64,000 nucleotides of DNA, taken from the NCBI GenBank assembly GCA_937861125.1, contig CALMAY010000037.1, positions 4,941 to 68,940 of the forward strand, written 5' to 3'. Position numbers and translations under genes: made by a program. A model generated the notes under the pieces. It saw only the letters and a program-made list of their open reading frames with translations. It was not told the DNA's origin and ran no database searches. Every line of letters begins with the position of its first letter. The stretch's first letter is position 1. This document shows positions 6,337-51,478 of the stretch, in pieces. The stretch is from an uncultured bacterium (GTDB taxonomy: Bacteria; Patescibacteriota; Patescibacteriia; Magasanikbacterales; UBA922).

Positions 6337-6940
6337 ATGTAGAATAAATTGGAATATGTAACTCTTCTAATACGTGTGCGTAATTTTTTGTTGGATTTAA
6401 TTTTGTAATTACTTCTACATCTGGATTCATCTTTTTTACCAACACATTTTCACGTCCATTATCATTGATAAAAAATGTTTTTTCTTTTTCCATTCTTTCT
6501 CGCACGTAGACATCTTTACCCCCAGGAATATACACTTCTTGATGTACATGCACATTCACACCACTTCCCTGAACTTTAGATCTTTGAAAATTTGCATTTC
6601 CCGCTGTGAGCAATATTACTTTATGACCACATTCTTTTAGCGAAGCAATAAACTCAATAGCACCTGCAAAAACGTATTTATTCGTAAAGAGTCCGTTTAA
6701 TTCTTTTAAAACTATTTTCTGATCCACATCTTGACCTAGAGATCGCACAGCGGCAATATGCCGCTCAAATGTATAATCAAAATGTAACAATACATCTGTT
6801 GCCACCGCTCTTTCTTTTGCTTCATACGCGATATCAAGCGGTACACCATGTGTATGAAAAATATCACAAATATCTTTTACAAAATTTTCTGTATTGTACA
6901 GCGTCATGTCAAAATCAATGTAGATCATAACGTTTCCCAA
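6302..6940 (-). CDS. HAD-superfamily hydrolase/phosphomutase-like protein
   Basis: HAD motif I is IYIDFDMTLY (DxDxT), motif II is ILLTAGN, and motif IV is FFINDNGRE. The start may be 6928, which would remove the overlap with the upstream gene. Confidence 0.75.
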   Translation of the reverse strand: MGNVMIYIDFDMTLYNTENFVKDICDIFHTHGVPLDIAYEAKERAVATDVLLHFDYTFERHIAAVRSLGQDVDQKIVLKELNGLFTNKYVFAGAIEFIASLKECGHKVILLTAGNANFQRSKVQGSGVNVHVHQEVYIPGGKDVYVRERMEKEKTFFINDNGRENVLVKKMNPDVEVITKLNPTKNYAHVLEELHIPIYSTFDEIYAYVITH

Positions 6941-7659
6941 AGTGTATCAAAAATACCTTTTTGCGTTTCACTAATACCAATATTTTCAATCATCACACCG
7001 ACCGCTTCTTGTTTTGCATTGAGTGAAATATAGGCGGTCTTACCAGGATAAATAATGATATAGGTCGGTGTAGTGGATGACGCTTTCATGTATTTTCGCT
7101 CATCGAGCCCACGCAACTCCCCACCTTCACCAATCGCAATCGCTCGTACTGCGATCCCCTTACCAATACGCGCATCACTAAAGGTCGGAAAATCTTTGTA
7201 TAATTGTTCACGCAGTCCATCAACAGAATAGACCCGATACATTAATTCTCCACTCACCTCACACGTATCCAGCACATCTGTTAAAATCCGCATAATCGTA
7301 TCAGGAGTAAAGTATCGCGCCACTGGCCGATTACCCCCAGCATTGTACACTGCCAACAACTCACTCATCGAGCGATCAATCTCTTTTTGAGCACTCATTA
7401 GCCCCTCTTGTTCTTTTTCGATCAATTGTTTCAGTTTTTCCGGATGTTCGACGACAAAATGCTGTTTACTGGCCTTTTTATAAAAAGAAACCAGCTCCCG
7501 ATCCTGCAGCCACTTGAGGGCGTCATACGTACTCCCGCGGTTGAGATCACAAAATTCCGCGAGAACGCGCACAGAACTAGGACCGAGCTGAAGCAAAGCC
7601 AGATAGACATCCGCAGATTTGTCAGGAAAACCTATTTTTTTGAGTAGTGAAATATCCAT
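6925..7659 (-). CDS. TrmB-family transcriptional regulator
   Basis: N-terminal winged HTH: LKKIGFPDKSADVYLALLQLGPSSVRVLAEFCDLNRGSTYDALKWLQDRELV. 244 aa. Confidence 0.8.
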   Translation of the reverse strand: MDISLLKKIGFPDKSADVYLALLQLGPSSVRVLAEFCDLNRGSTYDALKWLQDRELVSFYKKASKQHFVVEHPEKLKQLIEKEQEGLMSAQKEIDRSMSELLAVYNAGGNRPVARYFTPDTIMRILTDVLDTCEVSGELMYRVYSVDGLREQLYKDFPTFSDARIGKGIAVRAIAIGEGGELRGLDERKYMKASSTTPTYIIIYPGKTAYISLNAKQEAVGVMIENIGISETQKGIFDTLWETL

Positions 7660-10933: not shown

Positions 10934-11041
10934 TCTGGGCGCTGACCTACTCTTGCCTTGCGACTACCATTGGCGCTGACAGGCTTAACTGCTGTGTTCG
11001 AGATGGGAACAGGTGGACCCCTATCGCAAAAAGCACCCAGA
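10934..11041 (-). rRNA. rrf: 5S rRNA
   Basis: The reverse complement reads UCUGGGUGCU...CCACCUGUUCCCAUCUCGAACACAGCAGUUAAGCC...GGUAGUCGCAAGGCAAGAGUAGGUCAGCGCCCAGA. Helix I is a 10-bp terminal pairing. Flanking sequences extend the stem. Confidence 0.93.
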
Positions 11042-11140
11042 TTCTATGTCCTTTTGAGACGTAGAAATGTGATGAAATGAATACGTATTTAAGGAAGTGT
11101 TTTTCGTTTCTTTCAGTGGTACATTGGAAAAGCACAACTT

Positions 11141-14168
<3,028 letters not shown>

Positions 14169-16081: not shown

Positions 16082-16134
16082 TTGACAACTCTCTCTCTCT
16101 ATTTGTTAGTGTGGTTTCCGTCACACGGTGTGAC
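16082..16134 (+). promoter_or_regulatory. promoter block duplicated from rnpB, plus a 15-bp palindromic operator
   Basis: TTGACA (16082-16087), a 19-nt spacer containing (CT)6, then TAGTGT (16107-16112). A perfect palindrome GTCACACGGTGTGAC follows at 16120-16134. Confidence 0.5.
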
Positions 16135-16156
16135 GCTCAAACCAAGAGGATACACA

Positions 16157-17029
16157 ATGAACGGTCCAAACACAATCGAAGAAACACTGGGAATGATGGA
16201 AGATGAGAGGAAGCAGGAGCAGGCTGACCGTACGGCGGCCTACGTCGCCAACATCTTCGCCAGCCACAAATTGAGTAGGGTGTTGGCACGCAACATTGTT
16301 CACAAAAACGCCACCGTGCCATCGACCCAAGGTGACGTAGAACTCAACATCGAACTCACATACGTCGGCCCCTCACAGCACACGTTGACATACTTTGAGT
16401 TCAAAGACGAGGCTGACCGTGGATTTCATTTCCACCTTCATCGACATGGATCCGAATGGTGTGTTCGGTACTTTGTGTCTATGTTGGTGTGCTGTCACTG
16501 GTCAGGACATCGCAGCAAGACGACCCGGGAGTTCCAGGGTCATTTGGCGAACATCAACAAGAAACTGACGACCCCGAGACACACGCATCCCCACCGAGCG
16601 ACCAGGACACCTGCATCCACGCCTGCGCGGGTCGCAGCTTCAGCAACGCCCAAGGTCGACATAGCACCCCTCATCCGTGAGCGGGAAGAAGTGACTCGAC
16701 TGATCACGGACCTGCGAACACAGCTCAATCCTGTGCAGGAGCAGCTGAACTTGATCTCGAGTCGTCGAACTGCAAATGCGCGGCGGCTGCAGTGGATCAA
16801 AGCGAAAGAGGCTGAGTTGGACGCAATGCCAGTGCATGTACGACTTTATTACCCACCGGCCATACGTCTACAAACGGAGGTCGAGAGCGCTCGAGCCAGG
16901 ATCAAGCACGTCGACGATGCTATGGAAATGCAGCTGCGGACAAAGGTGGACCAACTCAGTCTGCAACTGCGTCAGCACGAAGCAGCGTTCGCCGATCTCG
17001 ATCGACGAATCAAGGAGGCGCAGCGATAG
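16157..17029 (+). CDS. GC-rich orphan protein with a C-terminal coiled-coil-like region
   Basis: The ATG at 16157 sits 7 nt after AAGAGGA. 290 aa, starting MNGPNTIEETLGMMEDERKQEQ..., with a Pro/Thr/Ala/Arg linker (TPRHTHPHRATRTPASTPARVAASATPKV) and then heptad-like helical sequence. Sampled lines are about 55-62 % G+C. No family recognised. The ORF-track start at 16082 is the TTG of the -35 box. Confidence 0.6.
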   Translation: MNGPNTIEETLGMMEDERKQEQADRTAAYVANIFASHKLSRVLARNIVHKNATVPSTQGDVELNIELTYVGPSQHTLTYFEFKDEADRGFHFHLHRHGSEWCVRYFVSMLVCCHWSGHRSKTTREFQGHLANINKKLTTPRHTHPHRATRTPASTPARVAASATPKVDIAPLIREREEVTRLITDLRTQLNPVQEQLNLISSRRTANARRLQWIKAKEAELDAMPVHVRLYYPPAIRLQTEVESARARIKHVDDAMEMQLRTKVDQLSLQLRQHEAAFADLDRRIKEAQR

Positions 17030-17054: not shown

Positions 17055-17080
17055 GACCGTCCCGGCACCCCGGGACGGTC
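17055..17080 (+). terminator. GC-rich hairpin terminator of the orphan gene
   Basis: GACCGTCCCGG-CACC-CCGGGACGGTC (perfect 11 bp), followed by AACTATTTTAT. Confidence 0.6.
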
Positions 17081-22835: not shown

Positions 22836-25208
22836 CTACTCACTCTTCTTCCCAAACCCAAAGAATCCACGTTTCTCTTCTTTCTTCTCTGGTGCTGGAG
22901 TTGCTACTGGAGCTGTTGGTGCAGATGGGACTGGTGGAGGAATAGGACGATTGAACTGCTGTGGAGGACGTGGACCGCGATCAAAGCCGCCACGATTACC
23001 GCCACCGTGACCACCACGGTTTCCACCACCACTAAACCCACCACTGCGTGGAGGACGAGAGTCCATCGGAGGACGTTCGACATAGCCATCTGGTTTTGGT
23101 GTCAGCGCACGGATAGAGAGATTGACACGACCCATGTTATCGATTTCTTTGACCAACACTTTGACCTTGTCACCAATCTTGAGGGCATCACTTGGTGCAT
23201 TGGTGCGACCCCATGAGATCTCAGAGACATGGACAAGTCCGTCTTTACCTGGGAGGATGTTGACAAAGGCACCAAAGCTCTCGAGACGTACCACCGTACC
23301 ATCATACTGCTCACCAGCCATCACCTCTTTGGTGATCAAGTTAACCTTTTCAATCGCCGCTGCCATCGCAGCGCCATCCACACTGGTGATGAGCACACGA
23401 CCATCCTGTTCGATGTCGATATCTACTCCTGTTTCTTCGATGATTTTCTTGATTGTCTTTCCACCTGGACCAATCAAATCACCAATCTTTTCTGGATTGA
23501 TCTGAATCGTCGTGATACGTGGTGCGTATGGTGAGAGCTCGGTACGAGGAGCGGCGATTGCCTCTGCCATTTTTTTCAAGATAACGAGACGTGCTTCACG
23601 AGCCTGTGCAAATGTTTGACGGATAATATCCCAACTCAAACCCTGTGTTTTGGTATCCATCTGAATCGCGGTAATACCGACATCAGTTCCAGCAATTTTG
23701 AAATCCATTCCGCCAGGACCGTCTTCGACATCCTGCAAATCAGTCAACACTTTCCAAGAAGATAGATCAGATGTAGAAGCAAGTCCCATCGCAATACCTG
23801 CCACTGGACGTTTGATTGGTACACCTGCTGCCATCAGTGAGAGTGATGAACCGCAAGTTGACGCCATCGAACTACTTCCGTTACTCCCAAGCACTTCAGA
23901 CGTCACACGAATCGCGTATGGGAAATCAACCTCTGCAGGCAACACTGGCTCGAGTGCGCGCTCAGCCAGAGCACCGTGACCAATCGCACGACGACCCGGA
24001 CCACGCATAGGTCCTGCTTCACCGTATGTATATGGCGCATCAGAGTAGTGATGCATGTAGCGTTTTTTGAATTCCTCATCCATGGTATCTACTGTCTGTG
24101 CGTCGCCAGGAGCACCCAGTGTCACAGTCGAGAGTACCTGTGTATCACCGCGCATAAACATACCGCTCCCGTGGACACGTGGGAGAAGATCCACTTCTGC
24201 ATGCAATTCGCGAATCTCAGTGAGACTGCGGCCATCCAAGCGTTGTTCTTTACTAAGGATGCGTTCACTGATCACAATACCAACCATCTCTTTGGCAGCA
24301 ACACCCATCTGCTCGATCAATTTTTCATCCACTCCCTGTTCTGTGAGATATGTAACCACTCCTTCTTTGAGTTTCTTGACCATACCAACACGATCTTTGC
24401 GTCCGATTTTGATAGAGTCAAAAATGACTGTGTCCGCACATGATCGGATATAGTTGAGTGTCAGATCAGTGACACGAGCGACCTCTTTTTTCTCATCAGT
24501 TTCTGCTGGCACATATTTTTCTACTGCCATCTCTTTTTTTATTGATTCGATAAAATCAATCAATGCTTTGGTTTGATTGAGACCAAATTCCATGGCAACG
24601 AGTGCTTGATCTTCTGGCAACTCTTTACTATTGCTTTCAATCATGACAAGTTTTTCTGGTGTACCAGCGAGCATCATGTCGATATCACTTTCTTTCATCT
24701 GTGCTTCAGTTGGATTGAGGATCAACTCTCCTGCCACACGACCAATCAATGACGCACCCATTGGACCATTCCATGGGATTGGTGAGATAGAGAGGACTGC
24801 GCTCGCAGCCACAAGTGAGACAAGTGTGAGGTTAGCATCGGTGTCATATGAAAGTGGAGTGAGTACGAGCTGCACCTCATGGCGCATACTATTGTCAAAG
24901 AGTGGACGAATCGCACGATCCACCACACGACCCCAGAGAATTGATTCGTCAGATGGGCGACCTTCACGTTTGATAAAACGAGAACCTTTGATCTTTCCTG
25001 CTGCTGAGAGTTTTTCTTGGAACTCAACACTCAGTGGAAAGAAATCTACCCCTGTTTTTGGTTTGTCACTCATCACCACTGTCGCGAGCACGACGGTATC
25101 GCCGTACTGGACTGTGAGTGAACTAGTTGCCTGCAATGCGTACTTACCTGTCTCGATGATCATGTTACGACCACCCCAATTTGTTGACCAACGTTTTACG
25201 TTCAACAT
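22836..25208 (-). CDS. pnp: polyribonucleotide nucleotidyltransferase (PNPase) with an RGG/Pro-rich C-terminal tail
   Basis: Two RNase PH domains, KH (GPGGKTIKKIIEETG) and S1 (GTVVRLESFGAFVNILPGKDGLVHVSEIS). 790 aa, including a low-complexity tail of about 85 aa. Confidence 0.96.
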   Translation of the reverse strand: MLNVKRWSTNWGGRNMIIETGKYALQATSSLTVQYGDTVVLATVVMSDKPKTGVDFFPLSVEFQEKLSAAGKIKGSRFIKREGRPSDESILWGRVVDRAIRPLFDNSMRHEVQLVLTPLSYDTDANLTLVSLVAASAVLSISPIPWNGPMGASLIGRVAGELILNPTEAQMKESDIDMMLAGTPEKLVMIESNSKELPEDQALVAMEFGLNQTKALIDFIESIKKEMAVEKYVPAETDEKKEVARVTDLTLNYIRSCADTVIFDSIKIGRKDRVGMVKKLKEGVVTYLTEQGVDEKLIEQMGVAAKEMVGIVISERILSKEQRLDGRSLTEIRELHAEVDLLPRVHGSGMFMRGDTQVLSTVTLGAPGDAQTVDTMDEEFKKRYMHHYSDAPYTYGEAGPMRGPGRRAIGHGALAERALEPVLPAEVDFPYAIRVTSEVLGSNGSSSMASTCGSSLSLMAAGVPIKRPVAGIAMGLASTSDLSSWKVLTDLQDVEDGPGGMDFKIAGTDVGITAIQMDTKTQGLSWDIIRQTFAQAREARLVILKKMAEAIAAPRTELSPYAPRITTIQINPEKIGDLIGPGGKTIKKIIEETGVDIDIEQDGRVLITSVDGAAMAAAIEKVNLITKEVMAGEQYDGTVVRLESFGAFVNILPGKDGLVHVSEISWGRTNAPSDALKIGDKVKVLVKEIDNMGRVNLSIRALTPKPDGYVERPPMDSRPPRSGGFSGGGNRGGHGGGNRGGFDRGPRPPQQFNRPIPPPVPSAPTAPVATPAPEKKEEKRGFFGFGKKSE

Positions 25209-27969: not shown

Positions 27970-28078
27970 TGTATACGAAAATGGCTTATCTGTCAAGGAA
28001 ATGTGGGCTTACAGGGCCTAACAGGCTCAAGAAGCTTAAAATATAGGCCTCTTGAGCATTTTAAGCTTCTTAAGCCTG
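27970..28078. repeat. long imperfect palindrome, family B copy 2
   Basis: Left arm GGGCTTACAGGGCCTAACAGGCTCAAGAAGCTTAAAAT, right arm ATAGGCCTCTTGAGCATTTTAAGCTTCTTAAGCC. Shares its head and core with 14669-14761. Confidence 0.8.
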
Positions 28079-28132
28079 ACAAATTAGCAACATTCTCATT
28101 TCTCTCTTTTTCGTGTATACTACTCTCCATAT

Positions 28133-45655: not shown

Positions 45656-47073
45656 CGTATACACTGATTGCCCTATACACATTTCTCTTTGCATACATTA
45701 CGTGGCGTCGTTTTGAGCACGGACTGTTTTTGTTTTTTCTTCTTCTCCCCACATATTTGATTCGCTTTCCTCTTTTTGGCGTTCCGACGACGTTGCTTGA
45801 GGTAATGTTTTGGATATTGTTTGGTGTGTGGGCTTTATCGCGTATCACATACCATATATCACACAGCGAACAAACCAAAGAAAAACTTTTGTTACGCGTT
45901 ACGCGTTATGTGAAAAATACATACACCAAACAACCGCTTCTTTTTACTTCAATTATTCTCTTTCTCCTTGGTGCCACTATTTCCATATTCACCTCTATTA
46001 ATATCCGCACAGCACTCGGTGAATGGAAAGCATTTTATGTTGAACCGGTTATTTTATTTCTACTACTCGTTACCACAATAAAAGATAGAGGGCAGAATAT
46101 AGAAGATAGCGAAACACGTCCCCATCTTCTGTATTCTATACTCTACATTCTAACACCTCTCCTCCTCTGCGGCCTCATCACCTCCCTCCTTGCTATCTAC
46201 CAACACTTCACTGGTTGGTACGTACCATACGCATTTTGGGAAAATAGAGCGACCTATCGCGTCACCGCATGGTATGGATTTCCAAATGGAGTAGGGTTGT
46301 TTCTTGCTCCTTTGGTGCCGTTGGCAATCGGGATGATAATTTCATTCATTCATGAAACAAAAAGCAGCATAATCAAAAGATCATATAATCATATAATCAT
46401 TACCACAATTTCTTTACTTTATATTCCTTGCTCTATACTCGCTATTCTCTTTGCCAAAAGTACTGGTGCTCTCATTGGTATTGCAGCAAGTATTGGTTTC
46501 CTTCTACTGCTATACAAAAAAACACGTTGGCTCACACTCGCTGTTGGTATAGTAGGTATTGTCAGTCTTTTTAGTGTTTCAAGTCTCAAACCCATTCGTG
46601 ATGAAATATTTTTTCAAGATCGTTCTGGACAAATCCGCCTTGCAATCTATGATGAAACAATACAACTCCTCAAAGATCGACCAATCTTTGGGGCAGGTAT
46701 CGCATCATACGACGAACGTATTGCCCCATACCATGGACGTGTCAACGGTGAATCAATCGAAATATTTCACCATCCCCATAATATCTTTTTGACCATGTGG
46801 GTAAATATAGGGCTGATTGGATTAATTGGTTTTTTGGGAATTATTGTTTGGTGTTTCAAGAGAAGTTACGAAGTGATGATGTTACGAAGTTACGAAGAAA
46901 AAACCAATTACCAATTACCCATTACTCATTACTTGCTTACCCCAATGATCGTACTTCTAACAAGCGGCCTCGTTGACTCTCCCTATATCAAAAATGATTT
47001 AGCATTTTTATTTTGGGCTATCATCAGTATCATCTATAGCATGTCCTACAAAAAAATAAATTCCTCTCTATGA
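45652..47073 (+). CDS. O-antigen ligase/polymerase-like (Wzy_C) membrane protein
   Basis: Polytopic; it has an AKSTGALIGIAAS loop and a periplasmic loop with GAGIASYDE. ATGA overlaps on both ends. Confidence 0.65.
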   Translation: MTYTLIALYTFLFAYITWRRFEHGLFLFFLLLPTYLIRFPLFGVPTTLLEVMFWILFGVWALSRITYHISHSEQTKEKLLLRVTRYVKNTYTKQPLLFTSIILFLLGATISIFTSINIRTALGEWKAFYVEPVILFLLLVTTIKDRGQNIEDSETRPHLLYSILYILTPLLLCGLITSLLAIYQHFTGWYVPYAFWENRATYRVTAWYGFPNGVGLFLAPLVPLAIGMIISFIHETKSSIIKRSYNHIIITTISLLYIPCSILAILFAKSTGALIGIAASIGFLLLLYKKTRWLTLAVGIVGIVSLFSVSSLKPIRDEIFFQDRSGQIRLAIYDETIQLLKDRPIFGAGIASYDERIAPYHGRVNGESIEIFHHPHNIFLTMWVNIGLIGLIGFLGIIVWCFKRSYEVMMLRSYEEKTNYQLPITHYLLTPMIVLLTSGLVDSPYIKNDLAFLFWAIISIIYSMSYKKINSSL

Positions 47074-47675
47074 TAGAGTTACTTACCTCCTACATACTCA
47101 ACGCGCTCACATTTGGCGGGTATACCACCTTTTTTCTTTTGACATTTCTCGACAGCACCATCATCCCACTCCCAAATGAAACATTTATGCCATTTGTCGG
47201 TGCACTGATACAACGTGGTGAGTTTACCTGGTACGCTATCCTGGTACTCAGTAGTATTGGTGCGATACTGGGGTCTCTCACTTCTTATGCGATTGGATAC
47301 TACGGTACCGAACCCTTTGTCAAAAGATATGGGAAATATTTTTTCATCACCATAAAAGATATTGAAAAAACACATCTCTTTTTCAAAAAACATGGTGAAA
47401 TAACCATCCTCATCGCTCGTTTCATTCCGGTAGTACGACAATTCAGCTCTCTCCCTGCCGGTGCTGCAAAAATGAATATCTGGAAATTTTGTCTCTACAC
47501 TGGACTCGGCTCTCTTATTTGGAACACACTTATTCTCTTTGCAGGATACAGCACCAGTAAATATGCTTTGATACTCTCACAGAGTATGCCGTATATAGAA
47601 AAAAGTATGTACATAGGAGCGATTATTGCAATAAGTATTTGGTTTATCCAATACATAAAACACAAAACAATATAA
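47070..47675 (+). CDS. DedA-family membrane protein
   Basis: The FIPVVRQFSSLPAGAAKMN motif and overall topology fit DedA/SNARE-associated proteins. Confidence 0.85.
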   Translation: MIELLTSYILNALTFGGYTTFFLLTFLDSTIIPLPNETFMPFVGALIQRGEFTWYAILVLSSIGAILGSLTSYAIGYYGTEPFVKRYGKYFFITIKDIEKTHLFFKKHGEITILIARFIPVVRQFSSLPAGAAKMNIWKFCLYTGLGSLIWNTLILFAGYSTSKYALILSQSMPYIEKSMYIGAIIAISIWFIQYIKHKTI

Positions 47676-47685
47676 ACAAAAAACC

Positions 47686-47756
47686 CACCCTCCAGTTCCC
47701 CCTCCCACTCATATCAATATGTTTGATACGAATGGCAGTGGCTGGAAGGTGAGTTC
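47686..47756. repeat. R1a: 71-bp three-tier hairpin module (3' flank of cassette A)
   Basis: 70/71 identical to 48488-48558. Outer stem CACC(C/T)TCCAG/CTGGAAGGTG, middle stem CCACT/AGTGG, inner stem TATCAA/TTGATA. On the minus strand this copy is followed by GGTTTTTTG. Confidence 0.9.
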
Positions 47757-47783
47757 TCAAACCACCCCTCAATACAAACGGAT

Positions 47784-48365
47784 TCAATCCCGTGGAGGAA
47801 CACCAGACATTAACCCATCACGGATCTTGTCGATTTCTGCAATAATGTGTGCAGCTCCAACAGGATCAATCCGAGAAAATGCCGATGTCCACTCTTCAGC
47901 GCGATTAATGGTCATTGGAATGTACCCTGTACCAACGCCGCTCAGTGCAGATTTGTGTGTGCCAAGCTCATGGGCAGCTTGCTCCAGAGTCCACCCCCGG
48001 ATAGTTTTCCAACGATGTATGAGTTGTACTACTCGTTGCTGACGTGGCAACAGCCATACTTTATCCTCTTCGTGGACAGAATTCTTGCGCATCACACCCC
48101 TTCGAACAGCTGCGGGTCCAGACACAGGCGCAACAGGTACCGGCACAGCAACCTCGGGGGCAGTCGGTGCCGGTGACGAAATCACATGTTGGATAATCGC
48201 CGGTGTAGGATTTGCACCCTGCAAAGAAAACCCACCGTACTCAACCAAGAACCCAGCGTCTTTCAGGTCACCCAACATCTTACTGAGCACAGATGTCGCT
48301 GCCTCCAGATCTTCGATGCGAACCACGACAACCACCTGAACCTTCTGGAGCGTTTTATGCGCCAT
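47784..48365 (-). CDS. GC-rich orphan protein A with a C-terminal XRE-like HTH
   Basis: 193 aa, with RBS AAGAGGT 7 nt upstream. A Pro/Ala linker (PAPTAPEVAVPVPVAPVSGPAAV) is followed by GWTLEQAAHELGTHKSALSGV (HTH-like). Sampled lines are 60-65 % G+C. Confidence 0.65.
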   Translation of the reverse strand: MAHKTLQKVQVVVVVRIEDLEAATSVLSKMLGDLKDAGFLVEYGGFSLQGANPTPAIIQHVISSPAPTAPEVAVPVPVAPVSGPAAVRRGVMRKNSVHEEDKVWLLPRQQRVVQLIHRWKTIRGWTLEQAAHELGTHKSALSGVGTGYIPMTINRAEEWTSAFSRIDPVGAAHIIAEIDKIRDGLMSGVPPRD

Positions 48366-48387
48366 GACTCTACCTCTTGTGTTTGAA

Positions 48388-48460
48388 ACCAGGGACCATC
48401 CCCAGCCTTCATACTAGTCACAAAATATATGAATAGTATGAAAGTGAGGATGGTGTTTGT
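48388..48460. repeat. R2a: 73-bp 5' module (promoter/operator-like) of cassette A
   Basis: 71/73 identical to 48937-49009. Contains the inverted repeat CATACTA-N17-TAGTATG, and on the minus strand a TAGTAT box and a CTGGGGA-TGG-TCCCTGG hairpin. Confidence 0.9.
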
Positions 48461-48487
48461 TTTGATTGGAATGACCATACGAACTTT

Positions 48488-48558
48488 CACCTTCCAGTTC
48501 CCCCTCCCACTCATATCAATATGTTTGATACGAATGGCAGTGGCTGGAAGGTGAGTTC
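48488..48558. repeat. R1b: 71-bp hairpin module (3' flank of cassette B)
   Basis: See R1a. Confidence 0.9.
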
Positions 48559-48583
48559 CGATTCCACTCCGATGCACGAAGGA

Positions 48584-48916
48584 TTACCCGACACCAAGAA
48601 GGATAGCGTTCGAATGCTTTGCAGCACGCGCCTGCTTGCCGTCATCTTGTCGTACAATCCATCTGTCTTTTTCGAGACAGTAGGCACTCATGACGATGCC
48701 ATTGTCTACGAAGTACAGACGTATAACTGCCCTACCAAACTGCATTTCTCCTCCATGCTCCTTGGTGAGCATGTCAAACGTCGTGCGGTTTGCTGGGGCA
48801 ATCCCCAAGCGAGTGAAGGCCTGTGAAGGCCTTTCCTCAGCTTCAATGACACGCGAATGAAGGCGAACCGTAACGCCACTACTCAGCGTGAACACATCTT
48901 GTTTTTTTCTGCTCAT
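48584..48916 (-). CDS. GC-rich orphan protein B
   Basis: 110 aa from the ATG at 48916 (MSRKKQDVFTL...), which directly follows R2b. The ORF-track call to 49114 reads through the repeat. About 55 % G+C in the sampled line. No family recognised. Confidence 0.55.
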   Translation of the reverse strand: MSRKKQDVFTLSSGVTVRLHSRVIEAEERPSQAFTRLGIAPANRTTFDMLTKEHGGEMQFGRAVIRLYFVDNGIVMSAYCLEKDRWIVRQDDGKQARAAKHSNAILLGVG

Positions 48917-48936
48917 TTTTTTCCTTTGAAAGAATA

Positions 48937-49009
48937 ACCAGGGACCATCCCCAGCCTTCATACTAGTCACAAAATATATGAATAGTATGAAAGTGGAGAT
49001 GGTGTTTGT
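48937..49009. repeat. R2b: 73-bp 5' module of cassette B
   Basis: See R2a. Confidence 0.9.
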
Positions 49010-49178
49010 ATATGAATTGTAATGTGCTTTCCTCTTTTGTGAGGATGAGATACTATATCGTACTGATACATTTTTATCAATAATCCTTATATATACAAAT
49101 TTTATAAATACCATAAATATGCATAATTTTAGCTTTGTATAGCAAAATATTTATACACACAAATAATATAAAATATTT

Positions 49179-49207
49179 TTGACAAAAATAATATTATATG
49201 CTATACT
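49179..49207 (+). promoter_or_regulatory. promoter of the second trmB-like gene
   Basis: TTGACA-N17-TATACT within a very AT-rich 200-bp spacer. The ATG lies 10 nt after the -10 box. Confidence 0.6.
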
Positions 49208-49216
49208 CCCTCTACT

Positions 49217-50002
49217 ATGTTCCCCATACAAACCATTTTGAGCTATTTTTCCTTTACCCATCAGGAAGCTGAGATCTACCTCGCATCCCTCACGCTCGGA
49301 CGAGCGAGCCTGACAGAACTAGCCAAAAAAGTCGACAAACAACGCTCTGCTGTCTATTTTCATATCAAAAACCTTGTAAAAAAGGGGTTTCTTTTTGAGC
49401 ACAAGCAAGGCAATAAGCTCCTCTTTAGCCCAATATCACCAAGCGAACTCTCAAATGAATTCAGTCGACGAGTAGAGACATTTCAAACACACGTACCAAA
49501 CCTCGAAGCACTCAAGCAGATCGAGACAGACACACCCGCCATCACAGTACTCGAATCAAAAACCGGATACCTCAAAATTTACGAAGAAATTGCAGCGCTC
49601 CCGCCCAAAAGTATGTTTCGTGTCCTCGAAGGACGCACAGCACTCGCACATGAGCTCACCCTCTTTAGCAAAGAACAATGGGGTACTTTTTTTTCTACTA
49701 TTGTTGACAAAAAAATTGAAACAAAAGGATTGTTTACTCACGCATGTAGACGTATTCCACAAATGACATTCGACAAGGAAACACACCAAAAACTTACCAA
49801 ACGTATTTGGCACATGCGATTTATAGATGAAACAGTATTCCCGTTTGAAGACCTGATTATGATTTATGGCAATACTATTGCATTTATGTTTCCGCAATCA
49901 CGCCTAACAGTTAAAATAGTACACCGCGATATCGCACGACTTATGACACTCTTATTTGATACTGTCTATCTTACTGGTGTGCCAGATAACACACCGTGGT
50001 AA
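49217..50002 (+). CDS. TrmB-family transcriptional regulator
   Basis: FTHQEAEIYLASLTLGRASLTELAKKVDKQRSAVYFHIKNLVKKGFL is a TrmB-type wHTH. 261 aa. Confidence 0.75.
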   Translation: MFPIQTILSYFSFTHQEAEIYLASLTLGRASLTELAKKVDKQRSAVYFHIKNLVKKGFLFEHKQGNKLLFSPISPSELSNEFSRRVETFQTHVPNLEALKQIETDTPAITVLESKTGYLKIYEEIAALPPKSMFRVLEGRTALAHELTLFSKEQWGTFFSTIVDKKIETKGLFTHACRRIPQMTFDKETHQKLTKRIWHMRFIDETVFPFEDLIMIYGNTIAFMFPQSRLTVKIVHRDIARLMTLLFDTVYLTGVPDNTPW

Positions 50003-50071: not shown

Positions 50072-51478
50072 ATGAAATATCGATTCCTCCTACCATATGC
50101 AGTTGCTAGCCTATGTATAACTATAAACTCCATACCAACTACAGCACTCGCGACAATTGATCCAAGTGTAAAAATAGACATGAAAAAAACTATCCAAGAA
50201 ATATATCAAGCTTCATCAATTACTGCAGATACAGTCATCCAACAACAATCTATATCACCAAAATACGAATATGTGCCAAGTACAAACGATACAGATGGCA
50301 CGTATGATCTCTTTAACTACACTTATAAAAAAACGGGAAATAAAAAAAATAATATAACCTATACCCTACACACAGAAAAAGATGCCAAAACAGATGCTTC
50401 ACACATAGCAGCATCTATCACAACAAAAACAGATACAGGAGAGAACACTGAAATTGAACTAGAAGCACGATTAGTCACAGATGATATATACCTAAACATT
50501 AAAAAACTAGATTTTACAAGCACTGGATCATCTGCACAGGAGACAGTCACCTACTCAGATCTACTAGATAGCTTTATCAACCAATGGATCCATATACCAA
50601 TCTCAACCGCTATCAAACGGTCAGACACATCTTTGCAACAAAAAGGAATTGGTGGACTAATCAAAGAAGACCTTACAAGTGATCAAAAAATTGCCCTACT
50701 ACACACACTTCTTGATTCCAAAGCAATCATAGTAAAACAAATACCAGACAGCAAAACTACTGCAACCCATATACATATCACGATTGTAAAAAAACACATA
50801 CCAACACTTATCAACAACATAAGCCCAATTCTGGGCGAACCAACTCTCACAGGTGCAGAAAAAAAAGCCCTCCGCAAAGCATTGCTCAAATTTAAACCAC
50901 CAACAATAGATCTATGGATCAACACAGATACACACTTACCTGAAAAAATGATTGTACAAGGTACATGGAACTCACTAAAACAAAACACATACTCAAACCG
51001 CCTCAGTGGCTCCCGTGGTACATACACCATAGAAACAGTGTGGAGTAATTGGGGAAACAAGATCACCATTACACCTCCAAGTTCTTCTAAGACATTTGAA
51101 CAAATACTCAATCAATTATTTACAAGCGACAATACGACACAAAACACAGCAAGCCTCGATGCACAACGCATTACTGATATACGACAGGTCCAAACTGCAT
51201 TAGAGCTATACTATGCAGACCAATCACATTATCCAGCTGCAACACAACCAATCGTACTTGGAAAATCGTCTACAATATGTCTCAATAAGACAGGATTTAG
51301 TGCATACGGATGCACAGCACCATACATGTCCATTGTCCCAAGTGATCCAGGCACATACACATATATATATCAATCATCTGGCGGGGCCGAATATACACTC
51401 ACAGCAATACTCGATGACAATCTGGGTAACCTCAATGCAGGTGTTATCACCGCTACACCAAATGGCCTACGAAACTAA
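50072..51478 (+). CDS. secreted protein with a C-terminal pilin-like globular domain
   Basis: Signal peptide. The C-terminus DAQRITDIRQVQTALELYYADQSHYP...C...C...YTYIYQSSGGAEYTLTAILD matches the post-helix part of CPR type IV pilins, but without the N-terminal prepilin helix. Confidence 0.55.
   Translation: MKYRFLLPYAVASLCITINSIPTTALATIDPSVKIDMKKTIQEIYQASSITADTVIQQQSISPKYEYVPSTNDTDGTYDLFNYTYKKTGNKKNNITYTLHTEKDAKTDASHIAASITTKTDTGENTEIELEARLVTDDIYLNIKKLDFTSTGSSAQETVTYSDLLDSFINQWIHIPISTAIKRSDTSLQQKGIGGLIKEDLTSDQKIALLHTLLDSKAIIVKQIPDSKTTATHIHITIVKKHIPTLINNISPILGEPTLTGAEKKALRKALLKFKPPTIDLWINTDTHLPEKMIVQGTWNSLKQNTYSNRLSGSRGTYTIETVWSNWGNKITITPPSSSKTFEQILNQLFTSDNTTQNTASLDAQRITDIRQVQTALELYYADQSHYPAATQPIVLGKSSTICLNKTGFSAYGCTAPYMSIVPSDPGTYTYIYQSSGGAEYTLTAILDDNLGNLNAGVITATPNGLRN

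Follow-up and report, generated by a model that had tools for sequence, protein, structure and literature searches.

The 64,000-nucleotide stretch of contig CALMAY010000037.1 analysed here (the window, numbered from its first letter) carries two tandem minus-strand genes between a DedA/VTT-domain gene and a gene for a TrmB-family regulator. Each of these open reading frames (ORFs), called ORF A and ORF B, is preceded by a copy of one repeat module, R2, and followed by a copy of another, R1. The order along the plus strand is R1a, ORF A (minus strand), R2a, 27 nucleotides (nt), R1b, ORF B (minus strand) and R2b. We refer to the enclosed coding regions as cargo A and cargo B, and to the R2 and R1 copies that frame them as their shells (Table 1).

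Table 1. Features of the tandem cassettes and of the genes that flank them (window positions)
Feature	Position	Strand	Description
DedA/VTT-domain gene	47070..47675	+	Convergent with the cassettes; PF09335, E = 1.9e-22; conserved other flank of the slot
R1a	47678..47768	-	Terminal 3' hairpin; stem ~47679-47758; U6 at 47678-47683; covariance model score 91.9 bits
ORF A	47784..48365	-	193-amino-acid orphan, cargo A
R2a	48387..48460	-	5' leader hairpin of ORF A; stem ~48395-48454, ends 29 nt before the ATG, leaving GAGG free
27-nt spacer	48461..48487	-	Contains AAGTTCGTATGGT, a leader motif conserved in sister species
R1b	48488..48570	-	Internal 3' hairpin; stem ~48481-48558; covariance model score 84.5 bits
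ORF B	48584..48916	-	110-amino-acid orphan, cargo B; best codon score of six frames; AAGGA Shine-Dalgarno
R2b	48936..49009	-	5' leader hairpin of ORF B; stem ~48944-49003, ends 27 nt before the ATG, leaving AAGGA free
Promoter-like site	49052..49080	-	Sigma-70-like TTGATA-17-TATAGT upstream of R2b; 10/12 matches
TrmB-family winged helix-turn-helix regulator gene	49217..50002	+	Divergent; PF01978, E = 9e-10; conserved partner of the variable slot

R1 and R2 are the two largest direct repeats of the region. The R1 copies (47686-47768 for R1a and 48488-48570 for R1b) span 83 nt with 93% identity, share an identical core of 62 nt and match at 70 of 71 positions across the span given by the initial annotation, whose repeats and layout are confirmed here. 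The R2 copies match at 72 of 74 positions and share an identical core of 58 nt. In the 64 kb each core has two matches and no more; 100 shuffles of that sequence yielded none. The two R1 copies lie 802 nt apart in the same orientation, each 3' of a different ORF, and the borders between modules and cargo are sharp. The part of the leader that adjoins R2 is only ~75% identical between the two units, compared with 97% for R2 itself.

Both modules form long hairpins, with many G·U pairs, on the coding (minus) strand. Predicted RNA folding energies on that strand are -48.2 kcal/mol for R1a and -44.8 kcal/mol for R1b (z scores of -8.4 and -7.2), whereas the opposite strand of R1 folds at -27.7 kcal/mol, so that folding R1 on both strands, as the initial annotation had proposed, finds the coding strand far more stable. 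The corresponding values for R2 are -36.4 (R2a) and -37.8 kcal/mol (R2b) on the coding strand (z scores of -5.6 and -6.1) and -29.9 kcal/mol on the other. The asymmetry arises because of the G·U pairs. No other 80-nt stretch of the 64 kb, on whichever strand, folds as stably as the two R1 copies. Because R1 folds at about -48 kcal/mol on the coding strand and -28 kcal/mol on the opposite one, it most likely acts as RNA. The inverted repeat CATACTA-N17-TAGTATG that had been described in R2 is present, but it makes up only the inner part of a hairpin stem of ~27 base pairs (bp).

Other identities for the modules were considered. R2 could be read as a DNA operator with 9-bp half-sites, but these would lie ~26 bp apart from centre to centre, a spacing that seems atypical for a helix-turn-helix (HTH) dimer, and we judge this less likely than an RNA hairpin. 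R1 and R2 could also be diverged copies of one hairpin. A naive shuffle gives p = 0.002 for their similarity, an arm-preserving shuffle 0.015 and a block-preserving shuffle 0.057; the reverse complement of R2 scores equally well, and a common origin is unproven. An R1 covariance model gives only weak scores on the R2 copies (18.8 and 17 bits, E about 0.05-0.16). Rfam returns only weak miRNA-precursor-like matches for the modules, which are generic for long hairpins.

Beyond the window, exact-core scans found neither module in viral contigs, GTDB genomes or JGI metagenomes, collections that miss some contigs known to carry R1, so that this survey of other genomes is weak evidence of absence. 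A degenerate scan with the 3' arm of R1 gave only two chance matches, both in eukaryote-like contigs, and did not recover the source of locus L029, a known R1 carrier (see below). Similarly, blastn against phages and plasmids gave no match. In the ~85 kb of this genome that were inspected, R1-type hairpins number four, at two loci, and R2 copies two, at one locus. Overall, the modules behave as locus-specific RNA elements, a 5' leader hairpin and a terminator-type hairpin, and not like dispersed recombination sites.

The two cargo proteins are unrelated, as the initial annotation had claimed: BLASTP finds no similarity (E = 1.2), shuffle tests agree, and their compositions also differ, which argues against a duplication of paralogues. 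In a full phmmer search of 1.84 billion representatives ORF A matches itself only, and in a word-indexed set of 5.8 billion proteins ORF A and ORF B likewise find only themselves. Searches of both proteins with Pfam, PHROGs and NCBIfam yield nothing above threshold and PADLOC yields no match, and sequence searches against the PDB return nothing significant. Nor do these searches reveal a toxin or antitoxin domain of a type II toxin-antitoxin pair: for neither ORF does a Pfam or NCBIfam match come near the curated cut-off, and PADLOC has none. ORF A is predicted to begin with a small alpha/beta domain, followed by a Pro/Ala-rich linker and a helical C-terminal part that may include an HTH; for the XRE-like HTH assigned to it earlier there are only sub-threshold matches (Sigma70_r4, E = 0.015), with helices predicted at residues 107-136.

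The cargo is moderately enriched in G+C. ORF A has 52.2% and ORF B 50.5%, lower than the 55-65% that had been reported, compared with a window mean of 43.2%. Against 35 host genes (43.2 ± 2.8%), these values lie ~3.2 and ~2.6 standard deviations above the mean, and against sliding windows the z scores are 2.3 and 1.5. At third codon positions (GC3), both ORFs lie above the host range. The shift is real but moderate, and it occurs elsewhere in the window too. The ORF at 16082-17029 (plus strand; 315 amino acids (aa) in the ORF list, 290 aa in the collection's gene call), which has no Pfam match, forms the G+C-richest stretch of the window outside the rRNA (16.1-17.0 kb, up to 57%); it has no R1/R2 shell, and ends in an ordinary perfect 11-bp GC hairpin at ~17055-17080. 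The cassettes are therefore not the only place where G+C-rich orphan genes occur.

Gene callers extend ORF B to 176 aa (P0012; 48584-49114, minus strand) from an upstream ATG, a form that would span R2b and the promoter-like site. This start is probably wrong, and the 110-aa form, which has the AAGGA Shine-Dalgarno sequence and is the one called in the related strain contig L002, is probably right.

The position between dedA and the TrmB gene holds different genes in different species. TrmB homologues with 55-58% identity led to syntenic loci in two sister species, L028 and L029/L030. The order in L029/L030 is wzy, dedA, one minus-strand ORF and TrmB; the L028 contig ends before dedA. The slot ORFs of these loci (193 and 196 aa) show no relationship to one another or to either ORF A or ORF B, lack Pfam domains, and lie 6-8 points above their surroundings in G+C. 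Behind each of them stands an R1-homologous hairpin with a U-tract, at the same orthologous position in all three species, and R1a is the positional orthologue of these hairpins. A promoter-like TTGACT-17-TATCAT, read from the sequence, occupies the aligned position in L028. No R2 counterpart is found at the sister loci, and R2 was not found outside this species. The idea that the shell flanks different cargo elsewhere thus holds for R1, which stands behind unrelated ORFs in the sister slots and at a second locus of this genome (below), but not for R2. The closest dedA loci in GTDB genomes (L003-L005) are non-syntenic or end at dedA.

We also considered whether the three species' slot proteins (193, 193 and 196 aa) are far-diverged orthologues. 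They show no similarity in local or global shuffle tests and contain 0, 11 and 4 cysteines, and shared descent is unlikely.

Comparison of the R1 hairpins from the window, L028 and L029 yields a consensus structure of 32 pairs, three of which show compensatory double changes, together with several wobble-compatible single changes (G·U/A-U or C-G/U·G). All R1 copies score 84-98 bits with the resulting covariance model. R1 is ~75-78% identical across the species, compared with 55-58% for the TrmB proteins.

Several side observations concern this slot and its partner gene. The L028 leader carries a different, 19-bp hairpin (L028:1241-1300, minus strand). The 14-mer ATGTGAGTGGTAGG occurs both in the loop of this hairpin and in the 3' arm of the L028 R1 (L028:517-605, minus strand); the leader could therefore compete with that arm for pairing with the 5' arm of R1, which would be a long-range contact between 5' and 3' regions. 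L028 also has a second ORF 3' of R1. Adjoining the slot on the other side, a 468-aa pilin-like (T2SSG-type) gene follows TrmB at 50072-51478 (plus strand) and is absent from L002 (1-900) and L029 (10851-12008), where an apparent AI-2E-family transporter gene follows TrmB directly (annotated in L029, inferred in L002); the presence of the pilin-like gene is a second point of variation beside the slot. TrmB-family genes of more distantly related, Patescibacteria-like contigs (L031:960-2700 and L034:6400-10000) are divergent from runs of two or three Pfam-less ORFs, which in L031 lie ~10 G+C points above their surroundings. No R1-type hairpins were found at L031 or L034. The pairing of a TrmB regulator with orphan genes may be general. 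A second TrmB-family gene of the window (244 aa; 6925-7659, minus strand) stands at the head of a sugar-nucleotide/GlmS cluster without orphan neighbours.

The 27-nt spacer between the two units provides information on their history. The 13-mer AAGTWCGTATGGT occurs once in the window, within the spacer, and once in L029/L030, in the leader at the start of the cargo; the L028 leader has the related TCGTACGGTT at the same place. Because the spacer holds this conserved leader motif, we regard it as the ancestral leader of a resident cassette A, and cassette B therefore sits within the leader of cassette A. If so, cassette A would be the resident unit, retaining the original leader motif and the dedA-adjacent R1, and cassette B would have arisen from a copied shell (R2 through R1, preceded by ~22 nt of leader) that was placed between the promoter and the ancestral leader with a different cargo inside.

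The arrangement of expression signals fits a single transcription unit. The TTGATA-17-TATAGT upstream of R2b is the sole promoter-like site found for the cassette pair; TrmB has its own, divergent TTGACA-17-TATACT at 49179-49207. No sigma-70-like promoter was found within R2 or between the ORFs, and the TAGTAT box noted earlier belongs to no promoter match, so that the earlier view of R2 as a promoter module is not borne out. The terminator role proposed for R1 would apply to one of its two copies. A stable stem-loop followed by a U-tract, which defines an intrinsic terminator, is present at R1a (U6) but not at R1b, which lacks a U-tract; the tract is U9 at the L029 R1, U4 at the L028 R1 and U6-7 at the hairpins of the second locus. 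A simple terminator scanner missed R1, whose stem and loop exceed its limits. Given that R1b has no U-tract, read-through is expected there.

The likeliest layout, judging from these sequence signals, is one operon that runs P-R2b-ORF B-R1b-leader-R2a-ORF A-R1a-U6. Transcription would start at the sigma-70-like promoter (49080-49052, minus strand), cross R2b, ORF B, R1b, the ancestral leader, R2a and ORF A, and end at R1a, a G·U-rich hairpin of ~30 bp with its U6; the internal R1b, with no U-tract, should let polymerase pass. At the RNA level, R2 would be a 27-bp leader stem-loop that leaves the Shine-Dalgarno sequence unpaired, and R1 a long 3' stem-loop of the terminator type. With both hairpins around it, each cistron would be shielded from exonucleases at its 5' and 3' ends; PNPase is encoded at 22836-25208. 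Long duplexes of this kind are typical RNase III substrates, and RNase III could separate the two cistrons into individually stabilised mRNAs.

A second tandem pair lies ~19 kb away, at L045:4895-5432 (minus strand of L045; ~67,743-68,280 in window numbering, 3.7-4.3 kb past the window end), between efp and a DUF1294 gene. The R1 covariance model finds two hairpins there (35.5 and 34.3 bits, E about 1e-6), with folding energies of -44 and -48 kcal/mol for the coding strand and -23 and -27 kcal/mol for the other. Each lies 3' of a different tiny hydrophobic ORF (29 aa, MEDIWTTLKLVLLLFFILAVWSAIRAGD; 32 aa, MIAAIIIAYSVGFGSGLLLGFGICLIFVKR), and the same TTGACA promoter module, GGCATTGACAAC(TC)nTTT..., precedes each mini-ORF. 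The promoter and the hairpin bases are conserved between the two units, ~76% overall, and the mini-ORFs are not alignable. Copies within a locus are more alike than copies between loci. A broader model built from all six hairpins has eight covarying pairs and finds no further member in 231 kb of the window plus the loci; Rfam assigns the second-locus hairpins to no family. The mini-ORF peptides resemble type I toxins or small membrane proteins. The reuse of a shell around different small ORFs therefore recurs in this genome, and always as a local tandem pair.

The related strain contig L002, which covers TrmB, the intergenic region, R2, ORF B and part of R1, differs from the window in a mosaic fashion. 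Differences number 22 of 786 positions in TrmB, 8 of 207 in the intergenic region, 8 of 74 in R2 and 4 of 60 in the partial R1, but 0 of 365 in cargo B. Compared with a background of 3.0%, the identity of cargo B has P = 1.4e-5. The identical tract begins and stops within ~4 nt of the module edges, and the differences in R1 and R2 all fall in loops or bulges or preserve pairing. This comparison, a single one, is our strongest hint that the cargo is the unit of recent exchange. The initial annotation had suggested examining whether cargo varies between strains; in this one strain, cargo B is identical and the modules around it have diverged.

With middling confidence, we interpret the locus as a two-gene operon of lineage-specific orphans in a variable, regulator-adjacent slot, in which the shell has been copied, the hairpins serve as terminator and as stabiliser or processing elements, and the cargo turns over by recombination. 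The locus looks like a local gene-turnover hotspot; evidence for a new mobile-cassette system was not found. What was observed directly is that the repeats exist, that their structure is strand-specific and covaries, that the orphan cargo genes are unrelated, that an orthologous R1 accompanies other cargo in the sister species, and that divergence is mosaic. Cargo turnover would result from recombination with end points at or near the cargo/module borders, for which the conserved modules and flanks would most simply be the homology arms, and gene conversion would keep the two shells alike.

Several points weigh against this interpretation. Homologous exchange works poorly through arms of only ~70 bp, and it would usually convert some of the arm sequence as well. 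The L002 modules differ from those of the window at 12 of 134 positions (9%), more than the 3% of the background (p = 0.002 against all background, 0.06 against the intergenic region alone). The conservation of R1 goes beyond what an ordinary terminator needs and hints at an additional function. Furthermore, we infer the recombination route and the transcript map, including promoter, termination, processing and the stabilising role, from sequence.

A dedicated mobile-cassette system is an unlikely alternative, in which R2 and R1 would be strand-specific hairpin recombination sites (attC- or PATE-like) at which a recombinase encoded elsewhere would insert, excise or exchange the orphan cargo. 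Such a system would suit the sharp borders, the compositionally atypical cargo and, in L002, a cargo whose identity stops so close to the edges of diverged modules. However, no integrase, transposase or recombinase Pfam family occurs among the genes called over nearly the whole window and ~9 kb beyond it (~75 kb), in line with what the initial annotation had stated for the window; no Y1_Tnp turned up in the region inspected, and there is no TnpA or TnpB nearby. The R1 hairpins are strand-asymmetric with DNA folding parameters too (-21.9 versus -11.6 kcal/mol), a point in favour of such a system, but their many G·U pairs favour RNA. Nor do the hairpin bases carry the RYYYAAC/GTTRRRY cores of attC sites on either strand, as read by eye: those of R1 are GAGAAC.../...GGGTGGGTTTTTT and CGGAAC.../...GGTGAAAGTTCG on the coding strand and ...GGTGAGTTCTCAA and ...GGTGAGTTCCGAT on the other, and none fits the consensus.

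The position of cassette B inside the ancestral leader would also agree with insertion by such a system, and the GAAAG found on both sides of the inserted block could be a target duplication, but a match of 5 nt carries no significance when its positions are so loosely defined. That the L002 contig stops within R1 would be expected were R1 a repeat in that genome, and the second locus follows the same logic of a shell plus a different ORF; however, there are only two copies per locus, with no others found by covariance models in the 231 kb or in the collection scans. Although R1 is conserved more than a terminator needs, it occupies one orthologous position in three species and ends in a terminator-like U-tract. 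A bolder version, quite unlikely on present evidence, would be a new hairpin-delimited cassette system of Patescibacteria-like bacteria, in which a trans-acting factor (a recombinase of a new kind or an RNA-templated route) swaps cargo at module edges on single-stranded hairpins, with the dedA/TrmB slot and the second locus as landing sites.

We also doubt that the pair is an old tandem duplication under concerted evolution, with paralogous coding parts diverged beyond recognition and hairpins kept by gene conversion and selection. The second locus does look like a diverging tandem duplicate, given its partly conserved promoter and hairpin bases around unalignable mini-ORFs, and the greater likeness of copies within loci, like the contrast between R2 and its adjoining leader, would follow naturally. 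However, no test finds similarity between the two proteins, which also differ in length (110 versus 193 aa) and composition, and the one slot ORF of each sister species is related to neither. Moreover, an identical cargo B with flanks that differ by 3-11% needs a recent transfer anyway.

It is decidedly improbable that the cargo is G+C-rich non-coding or decaying foreign DNA with chance ORFs, with only the hairpins functional. This would explain why neither ORF has a homologue and why several overlapping ORFs of 84-109 aa lie on the opposite strand. Single-sequence AlphaFold models have low confidence for both proteins (pLDDT of 41.5 and 35.8), but poor models of this type are expected for orphan proteins. 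Of all six frames, the annotated ones have the best host-codon score, each with a single stop and with G+C higher at first than at second codon positions (GC1 > GC2), as in host genes, and a well-spaced Shine-Dalgarno sequence precedes each ATG by 6-7 nt (GAGG for ORF A and AAGGA for ORF B). An assembly artefact is scarcely credible: repeated modules of 70-80 nt can mis-join contigs, and the L002 contig breaks inside R1, but the modules are shorter than ordinary reads, and 9-10 contigs in ENA and NCBI assemblies, the longest of 329 kb, have the same gene order, which is therefore no assembly accident.

No description of a comparable arrangement was found in the literature, and known systems match it in part. 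Integron arrays and CALINs likewise consist of same-orientation, mostly promoterless orphan ORFs behind one upstream promoter, with an imperfect, strand-specific hairpin of ~70 nt 3' of each ORF and with cargo that differs between relatives. An integron needs the IntI tyrosine recombinase, and a CALIN at least two bona fide attC sites. Here, by contrast, there is no IntI in ~75 kb, the hairpins lack R''/R' cores, each cargo has a 5' hairpin (R2), the units number only two, and R1 sits at one orthologous position in three species and ends in a U-tract. The IS200/IS605-derived PATEs similarly hold cargo between left and right sub-terminal hairpins of the same strand, lack a transposase and can occur in tandem. 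However, the hairpins described here are ~3 times longer than IS608-type ends, the similarity between R1 and R2 is not robust (p = 0.015-0.057), and neither TnpA or TnpB nor dispersed copies were found in the region inspected.

Among repeat families, REP/BIME, ERIC, the Neisseria Correia elements and pneumococcal BOX/RUP share with R1 and R2 the form of repeated imperfect palindromes between genes of one transcript. These elements fold in mRNA, where they act as stabilisers, terminators or RNase III/E sites, and they can be adjacent hairpins. Unlike them, dispersed in tens to hundreds of copies per genome, the hairpins in this genome comprise two loci with two copies each in ~85 kb, always in sense orientation at the 3' end of an ORF. 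A further likeness is to mRNA stabiliser and processing hairpins, such as the RNase III sites of the T7 early region, the 3' 'positive retroregulator' of Bacillus thuringiensis cry and the ompA and aprE leaders, which are long, stable stem-loops at the 5' and/or 3' ends of cistrons in polycistronic RNA and whose 3' hairpin doubles as terminator and exonuclease barrier. The present hairpins differ in that such a function is predicted for them, in that the same pair is reused around unrelated cargo, and in that conservation between species is stronger for the hairpin than for the flanked genes.

The initial annotation had compared the locus to phage morons or a cassette array. A near-identical shell around unrelated, atypical orphans agrees with this, but no recombinase, attC core or dispersed copy was found in the regions covered, and the fit to morons is loose. 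Like a moron, each unit adds a gene of unusual composition between conserved genes and has regulatory flanks of its own, a terminator among them; unlike morons, the units lie in a housekeeping chromosome, R2 contains no promoter, and one promoter is common to both. An own promoter for each unit is thus missing at the dedA/TrmB locus, whereas each second-locus unit has its TTGACA module.

Indeed, the genomic context is a housekeeping chromosome and not a prophage. The window encodes 23S and 5S rRNA, tRNAs, pnp, rpsB, tsf, uvrA, ftsH, ftsK, recA and cell-envelope genes, and the neighbours of the cassettes include dedA, wzy and a glycosyltransferase gene; no match to PHROGs reached significance. 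The chromosome probably belongs to the Patescibacteria, or Candidate Phyla Radiation, and the relatives of the TrmB-like protein include one labelled Patescibacteria. Two further features of the window were noted. The 23S rRNA gene (3016 nt versus a 2925-position model) and the 5S rRNA gene lie at 10934-14161 (minus strand), and Rfam finds no 16S rRNA in the window; unlinked rRNA genes are possible, as is a small insertion in the 23S. A long near-perfect palindrome, unrelated to R1 and R2, fills positions 27985-28095 between the divergent genes for rpsB and a DsbA-like protein; its folding energies on the two strands are -39 and -34 kcal/mol.

Small-genome bacteria such as those of the Candidate Phyla Radiation are rich in orphan genes whose origin and turnover are poorly understood, and this locus offers a compact, testable case. 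From one species to another the gene in the slot is replaced, but the promoter, the leader motif and a terminator hairpin of unusual conservation stay in place. Cargo has apparently been exchanged between strains very recently, and within one genome a copy of the regulatory shell encloses a second, unrelated gene. If the hairpins only stabilise or terminate RNA, the locus would show the reuse of a shell for newly acquired genes. If they also set the boundaries of exchange, they would represent a new kind of cassette mechanism.

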